55,055 nt of DNA, from UHGV virus genome UHGV-0209657. One strand, written 5' to 3'. Source of the DNA: a virus. This document shows, one piece after another, positions 6,184 to 55,055 of this stretch (position 1 is the stretch's first letter; every line of letters begins with the position of its first letter). The notes beneath the pieces are model-generated. The model saw only the letters and a list, made by a program, of their open reading frames with translations. It had not been told where the DNA came from and searched no databases. The position numbers were made by a program, and so were the translations under genes.

Positions 6184-7230
6184 ATGAAGTGGTTTAAGCA
6201 TGACAGCGATGCGAACCGCGATGAAAAACTTCAAAACGTTTTGTTAGATTATGGCCTGGAAGGGTACGGGCTTTATTGGTATTGCCTCGAACTAATAACT
6301 TATGACGTAGATCAGCACAATCTGAATTTTGACCTACGACATGACGCGAGAATCATTGCGCGAAACGTCGGATCTACTGAAAAACGTATAGAAGAAATGA
6401 TGAAATACTTCATCGAAATTGGTTTGTTCGAATGTTCTCAAGGCCACATAACTTGCCTAAAGTTATTAAAAAGGCTGGACCAATCAATGACTTCTAAGAG
6501 CGCTTATAGGGCTGCTATAAACACAGCGAAGGAGCAATTAAAATTAGAGAAGTTAATCAATCCAACACCAAAAGGTCATGATAGGGTCATGACCGGGTCA
6601 GGAAAGGGTCATGAATTAGAAGTAGAAGAAGAAAGAGAAAAAGATATATACACTTCGTGTATTAGCGAAAATGGACAAAAAACGGTCAATCAGGATGGCG
6701 TAAACGAAGCGGCATTGCGTTGCTTGGCCTTCTACAACGACAAAGCTGGATGCAAGTGTCGTGATGCTAAGCCATTTATCGAACTACTGACAGAAACAAA
6801 AACACGTAAGGCATACACGGAGGATGAGATCACATTAGTAATCGAATGGGCTTTGACGCAATGGCGCAGCCGTGGTGGAACACCTAAGCCTATCAACATT
6901 TGCCGGGTAACTAAATTCGATGGGTATCTGGCTGACGCTGAGCAATGGCGCAAGCTATCAGCTACTGTAAACGCTGCCGACGTGGTGGAAGCATTTAACA
7001 GCACGTTTGACGGCCTGTTACCACCTGCCGAACTGGATCGGGATCTTGAACGCAAGATCTATGCGTTCACTGACTACCTGAAAGACAAAAGCATTAACGG
7101 CTTTGTCGCCTACTTCGAAACGTTCAAAAACACGGCTTCAGATTTTTACTTCGGCAATGGCTTCACTGCGACACTTGATTTCCTGCTTAAACCAAAAACG
7201 CTACGTGATACGCGCGCTGGCGCTCTTTGA
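6184..7230 (+). CDS. replication initiation / replisome organiser protein
   Basis: N-terminus MKWFKHDSDANRDEKL...GLEGYGLYWYCLE matches recalled DUF4373 replication N-domain; GGAGGG RBS; upstream of helicase. Confidence 0.7.
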   Translation: MKWFKHDSDANRDEKLQNVLLDYGLEGYGLYWYCLELITYDVDQHNLNFDLRHDARIIARNVGSTEKRIEEMMKYFIEIGLFECSQGHITCLKLLKRLDQSMTSKSAYRAAINTAKEQLKLEKLINPTPKGHDRVMTGSGKGHELEVEEEREKDIYTSCISENGQKTVNQDGVNEAALRCLAFYNDKAGCKCRDAKPFIELLTETKTRKAYTEDEITLVIEWALTQWRSRGGTPKPINICRVTKFDGYLADAEQWRKLSATVNAADVVEAFNSTFDGLLPPAELDRDLERKIYAFTDYLKDKSINGFVAYFETFKNTASDFYFGNGFTATLDFLLKPKTLRDTRAGAL

Positions 7231-7363
7231 CCAACCACGATCCGCAAAAATCCAAAATTACCCACAAAACAACCTCACCAGCGAGCTAAATCGCATGTGG
7301 TGCTACACTTGCTTACCTTTTTGCGATTAGCTCGTTAGAGAGCGTTACAGAGAGGATTTTAAA

Positions 7364-7465: not shown

Positions 7466-7618
7466 CCTACCTACCAGTCTGTAAACCGAAAATTAGCCAC
7501 CTGATAGCGTCTCTGGCGCAATAAGACACTGCAACCTGTGCAAACGGGTTACGCGGTGGGATTTTTGCGTTGTAGCGCGTCTGAGGCGTTATATAGAAAA
7601 TTAATAAAGGAGGTATAT

Positions 7619-8674
7619 GTGATTGCTACTTATCATATGAAACTCAATTGTAAGGACACGCAATTACTGTCTGTTAATAATCTGGTTTCTGAACTTGAAA
7701 TTGATAGACTTAAATCATTTGTTAAATACTCTGATCTTTACGGATTTGAGGAATACAAGGATTTTATTGTTGATGGTGATGATGTGTATATCACACCCAT
7801 AACGTTTATTAGATTCGTTACACCTGGTAAATATAGACATTATGAATATAATGAAAAATGGGTTAAGCCAGTTATTGAATCTTGTGGATTAGTTGACTTG
7901 CAAGATATCTTTAATAAATATTCAAATAACACCAAAAAAGATAGTCCTTATGCTTATAATTATATTTTATGGTGTAACAATTATGTTGAAACGAGTGATA
8001 CTCCTGGGCGATGTTCTGTGTATGTGTCAAAAGAAGATGCTGAAAAGTACAAAAAATGGTTGTTCGTCACTCGCGGAGTATCAATAGAAAAGCTATGGGT
8101 AAGGTTGTTCCATTCAAGCGATATTGCAGATCCAGATGCGTTTTTAACTGAACACCTCAATAATGATGAGTTTACCATTGATTTAAATATTGAATATTTT
8201 ATAGTTAAAACAAATTATGGGTATGAAAGATATATTAGCGATAAGATAGCAGAAAAGTATCATGCATGGGGTGAAAATAAAGGTCTTAATAATAATTTTG
8301 AATGCGGGAATTATAACGACATAGAAAACTTTATTGAATTAAAAAGCGATAAAAATGTAATTGAAGAAATAAAAAAGGAGTACGACTCGAAATTATCAGA
8401 AATGAGAGATAATTGTAAAAATATGATTAGGAAGCGTTATGAACATGCTGGCTTAACTATGTATGAAAAACTAAAAGGAGTTAAATTAATAAGGCAATAT
8501 CCTGTTGATGTTGCTGGCAATAAGTATTTTATTGATGGCTACGATCCTGTGAATAACGTTGCTGTAGAAATTGATGAGTCACATCACAAACGGCAAGTAA
8601 AAAGCGATGCGATAAGACAAAAACGCATTGAAGATTATTTGGGGTGCAAGTTTTTCCGTTGTGCTATATCCTAA
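7619..8674 (+). CDS. AT-rich hypothetical protein with C-terminal DUF559/Vsr-like endonuclease-fold domain
   Basis: GTG start 5 nt after AAGGAGG; markedly lower GC than flanks; C-terminus YFIDGYD..VAVEIDESHH..D..R..LGCKFFR matches recalled DUF559 pattern. Confidence 0.5.
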   Translation: MIATYHMKLNCKDTQLLSVNNLVSELEIDRLKSFVKYSDLYGFEEYKDFIVDGDDVYITPITFIRFVTPGKYRHYEYNEKWVKPVIESCGLVDLQDIFNKYSNNTKKDSPYAYNYILWCNNYVETSDTPGRCSVYVSKEDAEKYKKWLFVTRGVSIEKLWVRLFHSSDIADPDAFLTEHLNNDEFTIDLNIEYFIVKTNYGYERYISDKIAEKYHAWGENKGLNNNFECGNYNDIENFIELKSDKNVIEEIKKEYDSKLSEMRDNCKNMIRKRYEHAGLTMYEKLKGVKLIRQYPVDVAGNKYFIDGYDPVNNVAVEIDESHHKRQVKSDAIRQKRIEDYLGCKFFRCAIS

Positions 8675-51107: not shown

Positions 51108-51499
51108 ATATTCGTCGCGTATTCGTCAATATCCGGTAGCAGGTCGCCGCGTTCGCGGATCTTAATAAACAAGCGTCCGCCTTTTACCTTCCGGCAGCGG
51201 ACAATTTTTATTGAGTCAATTTGCCCGTCATCCTTCCAAAATCCGGCATAGGTAAGGCTATCAAAAAGGCATTTAGGGATATTATCCAGATCTCTGATCC
51301 GGTTATCCGGCGGCGCGGCATAGATGGCGATTGCCAGTCGGCAAGGTAGGTTAATGTTTAAATTTAATAGCTCGATGATGTCTCTTACTTGTTCCCGATA
51401 TTCCTTCCCCACTTTGCTTATATAGTGAAAACCGCGCGAATGTCGGTAATAGCGATTGTTCGATGGCGGGTAAGGCAGGCTAAAAGAATATTCATTCAT
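51098..51499 (-). CDS. rusA: RusA-family Holliday junction resolvase
   Basis: N-terminal LPYPPSNNRYY motif and size; nin-region context. Confidence 0.75.
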   Translation of the reverse strand: MNEYSFSLPYPPSNNRYYRHSRGFHYISKVGKEYREQVRDIIELLNLNINLPCRLAIAIYAAPPDNRIRDLDNIPKCLFDSLTYAGFWKDDGQIDSIKIVRCRKVKGGRLFIKIRERGDLLPDIDEYATNMWG

Positions 51500-52101
51500 G
51501 CTGCCTTTCTCCTTAAGGCGTCCAATTTCGCCTGATAGATGTTTATTAGCTCCTTACATTCTGCAATCGTCCATTTGTGAGTTTCGTTGTTGTTCTCCAG
51601 AGCTACCACCCTGGCGAGGCCAATTTTTCGAATCAGCGCCGGGCGATACCCTCCGATGTTGCCGTCTAGTGTCTGGTTGCAGTGCCTGCATTGCTTGTGA
51701 CAATTATCCTCGTTGAAGCGAAGGTGTCCGGCGGCTGCTACCGTCCTGTAATGGCCTGCATCCCACCCGCATTGCTCACCGTAGTAAGTCCCGCATGATA
51801 TGCACGGCAATCGCGCGTCACGCTCGCGTATATAAGCGTTAAAAACGTTTTGCGCCTGTTTAATCCAGTAGCTGCGCGGATTTAACTGCTTCCGCTTCCG
51901 GTTGCGTTCTTCCCGCTGGCTATCACGGTGTTTCTTTCGTTCCATAGCCTTCATAGCCTTTTCACGATCGCGGCATAGCTGATCAAACTTCAGTTCTTCC
52001 AGACATTCATCGCTGCACCACGTTTGATTGTGATATTTAGGCTCAAAAAAAACGCCGCAGCATTTGCAACGGCGTCTTATGGGTTTTTTAGGGTTCTGCA
52101 T
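51496..52101 (-). CDS. ninG: NinG/Rap-family recombination protein
   Basis: Basic N-terminus then Cys-cluster (RRRCKCCG...WCSDEC...CISCG...CRHC); ATG at 52099-52101 with GGGGTGG RBS (listed start is GTG). Confidence 0.7.
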   Translation of the reverse strand: MQNPKKPIRRRCKCCGVFFEPKYHNQTWCSDECLEELKFDQLCRDREKAMKAMERKKHRDSQREERNRKRKQLNPRSYWIKQAQNVFNAYIRERDARLPCISCGTYYGEQCGWDAGHYRTVAAAGHLRFNEDNCHKQCRHCNQTLDGNIGGYRPALIRKIGLARVVALENNNETHKWTIAECKELINIYQAKLDALRRKAA

Positions 52102-52115
52102 AAAAACCACCCCGA

Positions 52116-52292
52116 TTATTTTTGATTCTCTGTTTCGTTCAGCCTTTCGGCGTGTCCGGCCATTAGCCAATGATCTAGGCATTCGTTGCACTCGTTACAG
52201 CCTCCTTTCTTTGTGCTGCATACATTGCACATTGCACGCATGACGCTCTCTCGTTCATAGTCGTCATGCCATTGGTAATCATCAAAAGACAT
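52116..52292 (-). CDS. small Cys-rich zinc-ribbon-like protein (58 aa)
   Basis: ATG with AGGAG RBS; translation verified; CNVC..x8..CNECNEC; below ORF-track cutoff. Confidence 0.4.
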   Translation of the reverse strand: MSFDDYQWHDDYERESVMRAMCNVCSTKKGGCNECNECLDHWLMAGHAERLNETENQK

Positions 52293-52368
52293 AATGCTCT
52301 CTCCTTTTCAGGTGATTTCTACGCATTTCAGCGCTGCCGGATTTTTAAAGAGCATTTCGTTTGCTTGA

Positions 52369-52429
52369 AGTATACAAAATGGATACACCAGAACAAGGTG
52401 AATAGCGCCATTATGTGATCCACATCACG
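52369..52429 (-). promoter_or_regulatory. candidate promoter with CRP-like site upstream of nin genes
   Basis: -10 TATACT (52369-52374), -35 TTGTTC (52391-52396), TGTGA-N6-TCACg at 52414-52429, within nested inverted repeats. Confidence 0.35.
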
Positions 52430-52451
52430 CAATGGCGCCATTTTGTAAATT

Positions 52452-53240
52452 TCAGTCCGGTAAAACGCGGTTAAGCGTAGTGCGATTGATGGCCCGGTCG
52501 TTAGCCAGGAATACAGCACGGGCAAAGCCGCGCGGCGTTAGTGAGCGGATCATCTTAGTGCGTTTCGACTTTCCTCCTAACTTAGCGTGCTGCTTACTGT
52601 CTTCCCATTCATCAGGCATTGGCACAGGCCGGAATAGCGGCTGCTTAAATCCATTCCCGCACCAGATACAAGTTTTCTTCGTGTATGCGTCGCGGGCCGC
52701 TATGTATTCAGGGAAAGCAGGGTGTTTATCGTCTTCCGGCAGGTAGCCACCGTAAGCGCACGGGTTGAAGATAAAATCAGGTTTGCGCCATAACGTTGAC
52801 AGTGCGCCCACCGGATTTTCCACCATCCACGGCACGTTATACATATTCGCCAGTTTTTCTACCAGTTTTGCGTTATACGCCGCCTTTACCTGGAAGGCAG
52901 GATCTTTTTCCCGTTTACCAGCGAACCAGCGAGCGCCTGAAACGGCGAGATCGTCGCACGGCGGAAAGCCCAATATAATGTCAGGTGCTGGATAAGAAGA
53001 CAATTCAGGCGAGAACATTACCAGGAAATGGCTGTCAATCCACACGTTAACGTATTCAATATTAGGATGAATGATTTTAACGCCTTCATAATCGCCGTGA
53101 TTTGCACCGTCATAATTGAAGCAATAGCACTTATATCCCGCTTCCGCCCAATCTTTAACGGCGTACCCGCTGCCGTCGTACAGCGACCACACCACCCAAC
53201 TTCTAAGCCAATTATTTAACCAATGTTTGCCCTTGCTCAT
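52452..53240 (-). CDS. C5-cytosine DNA methyltransferase-like protein (compact)
   Basis: Motif I-like LYDGSG, motif IV-like GFPPC, motif VI-like ENPVG in canonical order; 262 aa. Confidence 0.5.
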   Translation of the reverse strand: MSKGKHWLNNWLRSWVVWSLYDGSGYAVKDWAEAGYKCYCFNYDGANHGDYEGVKIIHPNIEYVNVWIDSHFLVMFSPELSSYPAPDIILGFPPCDDLAVSGARWFAGKREKDPAFQVKAAYNAKLVEKLANMYNVPWMVENPVGALSTLWRKPDFIFNPCAYGGYLPEDDKHPAFPEYIAARDAYTKKTCIWCGNGFKQPLFRPVPMPDEWEDSKQHAKLGGKSKRTKMIRSLTPRGFARAVFLANDRAINRTTLNRVLPD

Positions 53241-53740
53241 TTTCTTCCCTCAAACGTGAAATAGCGGCGCATGATGATAGTGATCACCGTTACCGCTGCC
53301 ATTTTTGAGATGAATTGCATCGCTGATATTTCCGGCATAAACGCCATAAACGATAGTGTAGGGAAAATCAACGCATCGCCTATGGCTGACGCTATATTTG
53401 CAGGCCAGCGTTTCGAATCGAAATCACCAGGTAAAACCCGGTAAACGCCGCCAGAAATAAGCGCACCGGAAACAACCGCGACGAATGAGGCGATCGCCAC
53501 CATTCCGGCGTCGTAATTTATCAGCACCGTGATTGCGCCAGCGGCGGCGCATGTTGTAGCCGACCATTTAAGGCCGCCGTCATATAACAGAAAATCACGA
53601 ATCATCATATTGACACACACGGCGGCTACCGTGGTGATCGGAATTACCCACGGGCCACAGTGGTTAACAATAAGATTGATGATAACGAAAACGGCGACAT
53701 AAACGCAGGCTAATAACCTGTCAATTGCCACCATCTTCAT
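53237..53740 (-). CDS. integral membrane protein, possibly VUT/YhhQ-like transporter
   Basis: 4-5 hydrophobic helices; segment ASFVAVVSG..RVL..W.ANIASAIGDALIF resembles recalled YhhQ. Confidence 0.35.
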   Translation of the reverse strand: MKMVAIDRLLACVYVAVFVIINLIVNHCGPWVIPITTVAAVCVNMMIRDFLLYDGGLKWSATTCAAAGAITVLINYDAGMVAIASFVAVVSGALISGGVYRVLPGDFDSKRWPANIASAIGDALIFPTLSFMAFMPEISAMQFISKMAAVTVITIIMRRYFTFEGRK

Positions 53741-54059
53741 TTAGCTCTTCCTCCCGATACGCTAATATCTGTTCGGCCTTAAGCGCGTTATAAGCAATAA
53801 GGTCTATAAGAGTGTCGAGCGGATCAGTTCCATTAGCGAGAATAGCCCCTAAACGCGCTTCCTTGAGGCAAATCATTAGATCCCATACATCAAGTGGGGT
53901 TAAATTCGCATTCATCTTAGCGTTGAAAATAGTGGCTATTTTTGGCGCTGATTTTTCTTCTTTTCGATCGTATCCGTTTTGCTCCCCTCTTGCCTCGATA
54001 GTTTCAGCCGCAAGTCTCAGCAATTCAGCCGCTTTATTCATTTTCTGCACCTCTTGCAT
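53721..54059 (-). CDS. hypothetical protein (112 aa)
   Basis: ORF between membrane protein and Dam. Confidence 0.3.
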   Translation of the reverse strand: MQEVQKMNKAAELLRLAAETIEARGEQNGYDRKEEKSAPKIATIFNAKMNANLTPLDVWDLMICLKEARLGAILANGTDPLDTLIDLIAYNALKAEQILAYREEELNEDGGN

Positions 54060-54585
54060 ATAGCTCTTTACGTGTTATCTGCGTGAAAATACATTCATGT
54101 CTGCACCGTGGATGCCAGATCAAGAACAAGCTACCCTTATTGTTTCCGCTTGCTGGCTTACCAGTAGCGGCATTGATAAACGCCAGACGCCCGCGCGTGA
54201 TTAATCGGCATTCGTTTGCCGTCTCCACGCCGTTCATAAACCAGCTAACAGAAATGTCAGCGGGCAATAGCATTACACAGCCAATATGATTTCGTTTATG
54301 TTCAAGCGCCGCCTTATCAACGAATGGCCCAGGATTAGAATATGGTGGATTAAGCCAAACATACTCACCAGGCATTGCCACCGCTCCCCACGGATAATGC
54401 AACGTGTCCATTTCTTCGGTTATATATCGCGGAACTAGCGCGTTTGCTTTGTTTGCCGCCACGTCCGCGACAAATTCAAATTCGCGGTCCATTCCTCTGA
54501 AAACTGGTTTAGGCGTCTGCCATAGATCTTTAATTTCCTTTGGAGTGTGACTACCTCCAAAATCATTTTTCATCATGACCCCCAT
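54034..54585 (-). CDS. dam: phage Dam-type N6-adenine DNA methyltransferase
   Basis: NPPY catalytic motif (LNPPYSNPGPF) and size; ATG at 54583-54585. Confidence 0.8.
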   Translation of the reverse strand: MGVMMKNDFGGSHTPKEIKDLWQTPKPVFRGMDREFEFVADVAANKANALVPRYITEEMDTLHYPWGAVAMPGEYVWLNPPYSNPGPFVDKAALEHKRNHIGCVMLLPADISVSWFMNGVETANECRLITRGRLAFINAATGKPASGNNKGSLFLIWHPRCRHECIFTQITRKELYARGAENE

Positions 54586-54833
54586 CAGAAATAATCCTGA
54601 TCAGTACCCCACCGATTATTTAGATACCCAACCAACCACACAAAACGCTCAATGCTGATTAGTGGGGCAACCTTGCGATAATGCTTCTCTAATATCAGCC
54701 GCGTGGCTTTATCGCTGTAGCCGTTCTTCTCTACCTCCGCTTTGCAGGCCGAAAGCGCGGCGCGGGCGGCAGTCTTTACGGCGTTAAATTGCGGCTCTGA
54801 CATATTGAATAAAGCCATAGGATCACCATTCAT
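54585..54833 (-). CDS. hypothetical protein
   Basis: Listed start is TTG at 54950; internal ATG at 54833 chosen; stop overlaps Dam start. Confidence 0.25.
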   Translation of the reverse strand: MNGDPMALFNMSEPQFNAVKTAARAALSACKAEVEKNGYSDKATRLILEKHYRKVAPLISIERFVWLVGYLNNRWGTDQDYF

Positions 54834-55055
54834 CCTAATCACGCGAAACAGTAAAGCAAAAACCGATGAATGCGCTACCAGCCAATAAAGCGCGTACAGT
54901 AAAAAGAATGCTTTCAATGTCGTTAAATTCAGGTACTGACCATGTAACAAAAATCATACCCAGCGTAAATATGACGATAGCGCCACTGAACACCAAAAAA
55001 AACAAAAAGCGTAACCAAAAGCCACGCCTTTAACCAGTTTAAAAAGCTCTTAACC

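Follow-up and report, generated by a model that had tools for sequence, protein, structure and literature searches.

The genome of the virus UHGV-0209657 (55,055 nucleotides, nt; this whole stretch is called the window in the following) carries, between positions 52102 and 54585, a compact gene cluster in which two DNA methyltransferase genes enclose the gene for a small membrane protein. All genes of the cluster are encoded on the minus strand. In transcriptional order, a Dam-type phage N6-adenine DNA methyltransferase of 183 amino acids (aa; 54034-54585) is followed by a DUF6378 protein (53721-54059; 112 aa from its first ATG), a short membrane protein of the VUT/QPTR (YhhQ) family (53237-53740; 167 aa; also called the transporter below) and a compact Dcm-like C5-cytosine DNA methyltransferase (52452-53240; 262 aa). 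As read from the sequence, the DUF6378 gene overlaps the end of the Dam gene by 8-26 nt, depending on its start; the start of the membrane-protein gene overlaps the DUF6378 gene by 20 nt, and its stop codon shares the sequence ATGA with the start of the Dcm gene. Because of these overlaps, the four genes form one translationally coupled unit. They constitute the distal part of the delayed-early operon of a temperate coliphage of the mEp021/mEpimmI type. The first-pass annotation of this locus, made from the sequence alone, had listed both methylases, the membrane protein and a 58-aa reading frame at coordinates that we can confirm, but had omitted the DUF6378 gene. Our principal finding concerns the membrane protein: a VUT/QPTR transporter has here left a near-obligatory partnership with the DNA transglycosylase DpdA, yet stays strongly constrained.

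The mEp021/mEpimmI coliphage group has been described previously (PMC11893012). The region shares 88-90% DNA identity with phages mEp010, mEp013, mEp021, mEp044, mEp515, mEp554 and MagusPhagus and up to 95% with prophages found in 35 of 5426 complete E. coli genomes. Colinearity with mEp515 continues across the ends of the window, which therefore represents a complete, circularly permuted genome of the mEpimmI group. Since the mEp021 record labels these genes, consecutively, as Dam, hypothetical, 'putative membrane protein (6 TM)', 'putative DNA cytosine methyltransferase', 'putative NinF' and NinG, most of the cluster was already known at the annotation level. The transporter is labelled only 'hypothetical' or 'putative membrane protein' across the records of the phage group, and its assignment to the VUT/QPTR family is new here. 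The order Dam-DUF6378-VUT-Dcm-59-aa protein-NinG is retained in a distant relative, L004, whose proteins are only 48-62% identical. The cluster genes share their transcription and a conserved synteny; nothing points to a single functional pathway or to cooperation among their products.

A short membrane protein of the VUT/QPTR family

Direct searches with the 167-aa membrane protein returned no Pfam match at E ≤ 0.1 and no NCBIfam or PDB sequence match. Only 12 close relatives were found among 5.8 billion proteins, none with a Pfam match for the domain. A profile built from seven orthologues and searched against 1.84 billion representatives, in turn, retrieved 259 relatives at E ≤ 1e-3 and 61 at E ≤ 1e-10. 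PF02592 (Vut_1) matched 85 of the 88 relatives that were scanned (best E = 1.9e-16), and five of the ten best relatives passed its gathering score; a 52%-identical orthologue (P0129) scored below the cut-off (E = 5e-4; 20.8 versus 27.2 bits). The protein also falls into phrog_4899 (E = 2.7e-46), which contains PEAT2 gp18, a 'VUT family protein', and tblastn matched phage genes with the same annotation at E = 1e-22.

The AlphaFold2 (AF2) model of the protein is all-helical with a mean pLDDT of 94 and has five long helices, of which one, with 45 residues, probably forms two spans; the mEp021 counterpart, gp32, is annotated with six transmembrane segments. A structural search of BFVD matched a 'putative vitamin uptake transporter' with a probability of 0.99, and Foldseek against the PDB gave weak, non-significant matches to ECF S-components (RibU; TM-score ~0.45-0.48). 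By this transitive profile evidence, we assign the protein to the VUT/QPTR family (YhhQ, PF02592, COG1738) as a short, divergent, phage-type member, in agreement with the resemblance to YhhQ and VUT transporters suggested in the first-pass annotation.

It belongs to the same superfamily as E. coli YhhQ, CAjan gp41 and PEAT2 gp18, is close in size to the phage versions (155-160 aa) and is ~55 aa shorter than E. coli YhhQ. It differs from its QPTR relatives in lacking a direct Pfam match and an adjoining DpdA or Que gene, and in belonging to a separate, DpdA-less clade. CAjan gp41 is a 159-aa 'preQ0 transporter' encoded within the preQ0 cluster of that phage (PMC7544227), and one further relative (P0221) is a QueF-like::VUT fusion. 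From its family and the association of this family with DpdA and QueF, the 167-aa protein is predicted to import a 7-deazaguanine-type base, similar to preQ0 or preQ1. Members of the QPTR family differ in specificity, as the E. coli protein accepts preQ0/preQ1 and the Chlamydia protein queuine (PMC11130926). Among the relatives, some 20 proteins of ~290-340 aa (among P0151-P0262) carry, behind the VUT domain, a hydrophobic stretch resembling a signal and then a beta-rich domain with ...F-R-R/K at its end. This last domain looks like an outer-membrane barrel, and two of these proteins match DUF5020; they and P0221 are candidate fusions or merged gene calls.

In the 167-aa protein, 14 of the 17 most conserved positions of the VUT family are kept, including all four invariant ones. 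The polar residues N22, R48, D49, N115, D122 and K146 within the membrane helices are likewise kept. These residues bear on the idea that the protein was recruited to a role other than transport, such as superinfection exclusion, membrane depolarisation or the timing of lysis, with only the VUT fold remaining. Small polytopic membrane proteins of phages often serve such roles, the mEp021 label goes no further than 'putative membrane protein', and the partner enzyme is absent. Retention of helix-embedded polar residues is, however, expected for a substrate pathway and not for a scaffold, and the gene lies in an early operon with DNA enzymes and not among lysis or immunity genes. We consider such a recruitment improbable.

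DpdA pairing among relatives and its absence in this phage group

To place the transporter in its genomic context, relatives were sought by tblastn in 50,697 phage records. The search detected the gene in the seven phages of the mEp021 group and, with 28-36% identity, in 14 further records. Every one of the seven sequenced group members has an intact copy, with 97.6-99.4% protein identity. We examined the flanks in eight of the other phages (PEAT2, Opt-719, AB3P2, LHE71, Phc, RCIP0319, Tbat1_6 and ECO111 5-P) and in two metagenome contigs. In all ten contexts, the transporter gene directly adjoins, and mostly overlaps, a gene of 245-275 aa that belongs to PHROG 887 ('queuine tRNA-ribosyltransferase'). 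These neighbours aligned with the genetically validated DpdA of CAjan with an hhalign probability of 95% (E = 3.6e-8). They were recognised neither by Pfam nor by a PDB profile search; their identification as DpdA-like comes from PHROG 887 and from this alignment.

According to a scan of IMG/VR, at least 421 viral stretches code for a relative of the transporter. Among the best 80 of these loci, a DpdA-like open reading frame (ORF) abuts the transporter gene on the same strand in 74. Of the loci without the pair, two lack room on the usual partner side, three have no DpdA-like ORF, and one (L059) has none upstream and only 85 bp of sequence downstream. Counted by clusters, the pair is present in 34 of 37 at 90% identity and in all eight at 70%. 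Because of the consistent adjacency to PHROG 887 genes and these counts, the short phage VUT genes are one half of a tight two-gene DpdA-transporter module. The relatives are typically paired with DpdA alone.

No such partner was found in the window. All tblastn matches of four DpdA-like proteins against the whole genome had E > 0.1; a DpdA profile, run with hmmsearch --max on all 438 six-frame ORFs of the genome, gave a best E of 1, and phmmer with CAjan DpdA a best E of 0.067. A search for FolE, QueD, QueC and QueE with the CAjan proteins (phmmer --max), which has single-sequence sensitivity only, gave nothing above noise (best match 9 bits, E = 0.027). When 25 window proteins, nearly all of them encoded in the early regions, were scanned with Pfam and PHROG, neither DpdA nor a gene of preQ0 synthesis was detected. 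The position that DpdA has in relatives is occupied by the Dcm gene.

The first-pass annotation had considered a transporter homologue unusual without 7-deazaguanine biosynthesis genes. Their absence held genome-wide, but the missing partner that matters is DpdA and not biosynthesis, because the E. coli host makes preQ0 and the relatives typically pair with DpdA alone. Compared with the described phage modules of DpdA plus transporter (Hutinet et al. 2019, PMC6884629; CAjan, PMC7544227), the transporter is homologous and likewise located among early DNA-metabolism genes, whereas DpdA and all preQ0-synthesis genes are missing from the whole genome. The phage can therefore not be classified as a 7-deazaguanine DNA-modification system.

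Three other viral loci carry a related transporter without DpdA nearby. The transporter of L004 is 54% identical and intact. That of L006, 46% identical and also intact, lies among unrelated small genes near an N6/N4 methylase. A third one, 35% identical, belongs to a 128-kb contig with T4-type genes (L011). In a neighbour-joining (NJ) tree, the window protein grouped with those of L004 and L006 in 97 of 100 bootstraps, and again in 97 of 100 when L011 was added, in a clade nested among DpdA-linked transporters. According to this tree, the versions without DpdA nearby form one clade. Downstream of the L006 transporter (L006 positions 6516-7363) lie two tandem paralogous genes of 136 and 144 aa, followed by an N6_N4 methylase gene in two of three contigs. 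We considered whether these two genes might conceal a split DpdA and rejected this, as both encode paralogous phrog_2510 proteins.

To judge how strongly the genes are constrained, dN/dS was measured against three orthologues (dS 0.14-0.42). The transporter is the most constrained gene of the cluster, with values of 0.00-0.04 (0.02-0.04 at dS 0.29-0.42), compared with 0.01-0.07 for NinG, 0.04-0.12 for Dam, 0.06-0.15 for Dcm, 0.11 for DUF6378 and 0.14-0.19 for the NinF-like protein described below. With its usual partner missing, the gene could be viewed as a functionless, decaying remnant of a lost DpdA-transporter module. We rejected this on the dN/dS values of 0.02-0.04, the lowest of the cluster; moreover, the gene is intact in all seven group phages and in the relatives at 54% and 46% identity, which makes decay extremely improbable. 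Because of this strong purifying selection, the transporter still does something useful.

The methylases, their DUF6378 neighbour and the flanking features

The Dam protein matches PF05869 over the full length of the profile (E = 1.9e-51; 174.5 bits against a cut-off of 28.1), the NCBIfam equivalog TIGR01712 'phage_N6A_met' (140.6 bits against 97.05) and phrog_111 (E = 4e-64). In the translation, the catalytic NPPY motif occupies residues 79-82 (DNA positions 54340-54351), so that the Dam methylase proposed in the first-pass annotation was borne out. Profile, motif and small size are those of the phage Dam family, and we noticed no notable difference. Judged by these matches, it is an ordinary phage Dam. 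Characterised members of this family, the enzymes of phages T1 and HP1 and of the Stx phage VT2, act on GATC, which is probably the target here as well.

The 262-aa protein carries motif I as Y21-D-G23-S-G25 (family consensus FDGSG), motif IV as P93-P94-C95 and motif VI as E141-N142-P143. In a 48-sequence alignment of the family, G23, S24, P94-C95 and the whole of motif VI are invariant, and F21 and G25 are at least 90% conserved; a C-terminal IRSLTPRGFA...AN block resembles motifs IX and X. The protein belongs to phrog_757 (E = 1.6e-88). It had no Pfam match at E ≤ 0.1, PF00145 included, none in NCBIfam and none by direct PDB sequence search, and only two of 120 listed homologues had a precomputed PF00145 match. 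A search of the PDB with the family profile gave weak matches to DNMT3B and M.HaeIII (E = 0.36-1.1), in register over motifs I-IV. The family is thus too divergent for the Pfam model, and membership among the C5 methylases therefore rests on fold and orthology.

The AF2 model (pLDDT 86.3, pTM 0.86) was compared with the PDB by Foldseek, and the best 50 matches were all catalytic domains of DNMT3A, 3B or 3C (E from 5e-7; TM-score 0.38-0.49), which supports a C5-methyltransferase fold for this protein. Relatives are widespread, with at least 7719 in the protein collection and family members in 1513 phage records. One of them, KarlJaspers bas06_0055, is 60% identical over the full length (E = 1e-102). 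KarlJaspers is 95.4% identical in its genome to phage K42, whose 711-bp dcm gene, for an enzyme nearly identical to that of KarlJaspers, produces 5-methylcytosine (5mC), as detected by LC-MS; K42 Dcm acts at CCWGG in Ec86 msDNA, triggers retron Ec86 and requires C82, E128, K175 and K176 (bioRxiv 10.1101/2023.08.16.553469). These four residues align with C95, E141, K188 and K189 of the 262-aa protein.

The description 'C5-methyltransferase-like', given because of motifs I, IV and VI, was therefore correct but understated, as the protein is an orthologue of an experimentally characterised phage Dcm. Based on this orthology, we regard it as an ordinary, Dcm-type orphan methylase of the characterised family, which, given 60% identity, probably targets CCWGG. 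It shares with the K42/KarlJaspers (Bas06) enzyme, whose PHROG 757 is found in Drexlerviridae and many enterobacterial phages, the catalytic Cys/Glu/Lys-Lys residues, the compact DNMT3-like fold and the lack of a cognate nuclease. It differs in ~13 extra N-terminal residues, beyond the family norm, and in its carrier, a temperate mEp021-type phage instead of a virulent, T1-like one.

Within the genome, GATC and CCWGG occur at expectation, with observed/expected ratios of 0.98 and 0.94. These site frequencies are compatible with protection by methylation at both sites, without proving activity. Many 6-bp palindromes are strongly avoided genome-wide, with observed/expected counts of 0/11 for AAGCTT, 0/19.8 for CCGCGG, 0/11.2 for GCCGGC, 1/11 for CAGCTG, 2/18.6 for GGCGCC and 3/23 for TCCGGA; CTAG is depleted as well (17/66). 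In phage LHE71, a Dcm-family gene (L017 1175-1854) was found ~2.1 kb from the VUT-DpdA pair. It was matched by tblastn in two pieces and may be frameshifted or interrupted. Since LHE71 has both, a Dcm and a DpdA module can occur together in the same early region.

The DUF6378 protein matches PF19905 with 37.3 bits (cut-off 27.1), and an E. coli prophage encodes the identical protein (100%) under the name 'DUF6378 domain-containing protein'. Its PGAP orthologues begin at M7 (54041), giving a product of 106 aa. With 106-112 aa, this form is short compared with most relatives (161-170 aa), among them mEp021 gp31 and the MagusPhagus protein; the difference in length is why megablast aligned the region in two pieces. 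A PDB sequence search gave no match and a homologue search only close DUF6378 proteins. We disregarded the PHROG label 'phosphofructokinase', which is without support.

The close arrangement of these genes could suggest an undescribed type of DNA hypermodification, in which an imported base or cofactor is installed by the Dcm-like protein, the DUF6378 protein or both in place of DpdA. The transporter is coupled to both neighbours, with the ATGA overlap joining it to Dcm at the usual position of DpdA; this arrangement is kept down to 48-62% identity, and DUF6378 has no known function. Yet a close orthologue of the Dcm-like protein makes plain 5mC, and the family of the Dcm-like protein occurs in 1513 phage records compared with only 21 that have any relative of the transporter. 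Furthermore, DUF6378 is a small domain with no match to a catalytic family, and the L006 transporter has entirely different neighbours. We therefore regard this type of modification as very improbable.

The unit is preceded by a homologue of Ipe ('inducer of pleiotropic effects') at 54585-54818 on the minus strand, which is first in the direction of transcription and 96% identical to mEp021 gp29. It had been listed as a 121-aa ORF starting from a TTG (54585-54950); the real product has 77 aa and starts at M45 (54818).

Downstream of the Dcm gene follows a structured intergenic spacer of 159 nt (52293-52451, minus strand). Its predicted RNA fold has a free energy of -55.8 kcal/mol (z = -4.95), and none of 200 shuffled sequences was as stable. 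The core is a long, near-perfect inverted repeat, AAUGGCGCCAUUGCGUGAUGUGGAUCACAUAAUGGCGCUAUU, forming a hairpin at ~52405-52441 without a clean U-tract. The mEp021 record has the terminator t4 (TERM_4) at the corresponding site, downstream of its cytosine-methylase gene, and the nutR2 region described for that phage (PMC11893012) coincides with the spacer.

Beyond this spacer lies the gene for a 58-aa, Cys-rich protein (52116-52292, minus strand), whose stop at 52116 is 14 nt before the ninG ATG at 52101. The protein shows a CxxC-x6-CxxCxxC-xx-H pattern and matches phrog_30170 (E = 1e-43) and, weakly, phrog_672 (E = 0.0018), the group to which lambda NinF itself belongs (E = 2e-36). Its mEp021 counterpart, gp34, is annotated as 'putative NinF'. 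The likeness to lambda NinF extends to size (58 versus 56 aa), location directly upstream of ninG, richness in Cys and a local similarity, YE(R/Q)ESV-RA-C--C. The similarity in sequence is weak, with BLASTP giving E = 0.002 over 18 residues only, and the 58-aa protein has its own PHROG. We interpret it from these features as the NinF-like nin-region counterpart, which lies beyond the terminator/nut spacer and outside the DNA-modification unit. The first-pass annotation had rightly recognised this ORF as a gene, as its PHROG match and its dN/dS value indicate, but had wrongly counted it among the DNA-modification genes.

The boundary gene (51496-52101, minus strand) encodes the NinG/Rap junction endonuclease (PF05766, E = 1.3e-66). 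Its start is likely the ATG at 52101, and its orthologues in mEp021 and in the PGAP annotation have 606 nt. RusA and then Q follow in the direction of transcription.

Elsewhere in the window, a 378-aa ORF on the plus strand (7538-8674) is located between the replication-initiator and exonuclease genes. It had no PHROG match. Its C-terminal part weakly matches DUF559 (21.6 bits; cut-off 20.6), a domain with the fold of Vsr-like endonucleases, and a PvuRts1I-like N-terminal domain below the cut-off (E = 1e-3). Judged by these matches, the ORF is a candidate nuclease moron or homing endonuclease.

Possible functions of the transporter and the methylases

Taking all observations together, we consider it probable, with room for doubt, that the methylases protect the phage DNA and that the transporter is kept for a DpdA-independent role. 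The Dam-type and Dcm-type enzymes would methylate the replicating phage DNA at GATC and CCWGG, which should shield it from restriction systems that cut unmethylated sites, whatever the dam/dcm genotype of the host. Such anti-restriction is the standard reading of two phage methyltransferases and had been proposed in the first-pass annotation; we adopt it as a presumed function. Dcm would also expose the phage to sensors of the retron Ec86 type.

The transporter would descend from the two-gene phage module of DpdA and transporter, in which it presumably imported a 7-deazaguanine base (preQ0/preQ1-like) for insertion into DNA. Its most likely role here would be the uptake of a queuosine precursor or a related base during lytic growth. 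This base would enter the Tgt/queuosine pathway of host tRNA or some other sink that does not depend on DpdA; since there is no DNA transglycosylase, the queuosine-tRNA pathway or an unknown sink are the only destinations. A boost of tRNA queuosine has been proposed for phages that have preQ0 genes and no DpdA (Hutinet et al., PMC6884629), and the same logic is applied here.

Several points weigh against this interpretation. E. coli makes preQ0 de novo and has its own YhhQ, so the benefit of an extra importer is doubtful. Transport by the short phage VUT proteins in general is a matter of prediction. The assignment of the 167-aa protein lacks a direct Pfam match, as described above, and hhalign of the thin seven-sequence profile with E. 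coli YhhQ (E = 0.1) and CAjan gp41 (E = 0.06) was in register but weak, and was left out of account. At three signature positions (S123A, A130S and G149A) the protein departs from the consensus of the family, so that specificity may have shifted. The finding that DpdA is not near the L006 and L011 transporters covers only ~6-8 kb around each gene. As to the methylases, both specificities are predictions, and 60% identity with a characterised Dcm gives no guarantee of an identical target site. Finally, deletion of the CAjan transporter left DNA modification unchanged in rich medium (PMC7544227).

The changed signature positions lead to the strongest competing explanation, in which the protein is still a permease whose substrate changed after the loss of DpdA to another nucleobase, a vitamin or a cofactor precursor, leaving no link to 7-deazaguanines now. 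The proteins without DpdA group in a clade of their own, have diverged too far for Pfam to match them directly and have three of 17 conserved positions changed, and known QPTR members already vary in specificity (PMC11130926). However, the other 14 positions, with all four invariant ones, are kept, and the neighbouring genes suggest no other substrate. A shift of this kind appears unlikely, but deserves the most weight among the alternatives.

Returning to a retained transporter with a DpdA-independent role, the DpdA-less clade, comprising this phage group, the 54%-identical relative, a temperate-like contig and the 128-kb virulent-type contig, could indicate that phages use imported 7-deazapurines, or a related base, independently of DpdA. 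We hold this more specific proposal to be rather unlikely. One possibility within it is that the phage raises queuosine modification of host tRNA and thereby tunes translation in lytic growth; another is the supply of an unrecognised DNA-modifying activity of the DUF6378 and Dcm-like neighbours.

The methylases of this cluster are routine. A Dcm of this family is known to trigger retron Ec86 and would therefore shield the phage and endanger it at once. The informative part is the transporter, whose role would be DpdA-independent. With the short VUT genes that have left the module, one can cleanly ask what benefit a queuosine-precursor transporter brings to a phage unable to insert the base into its DNA, a question that is directly testable in a phage of E. 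coli K-12.

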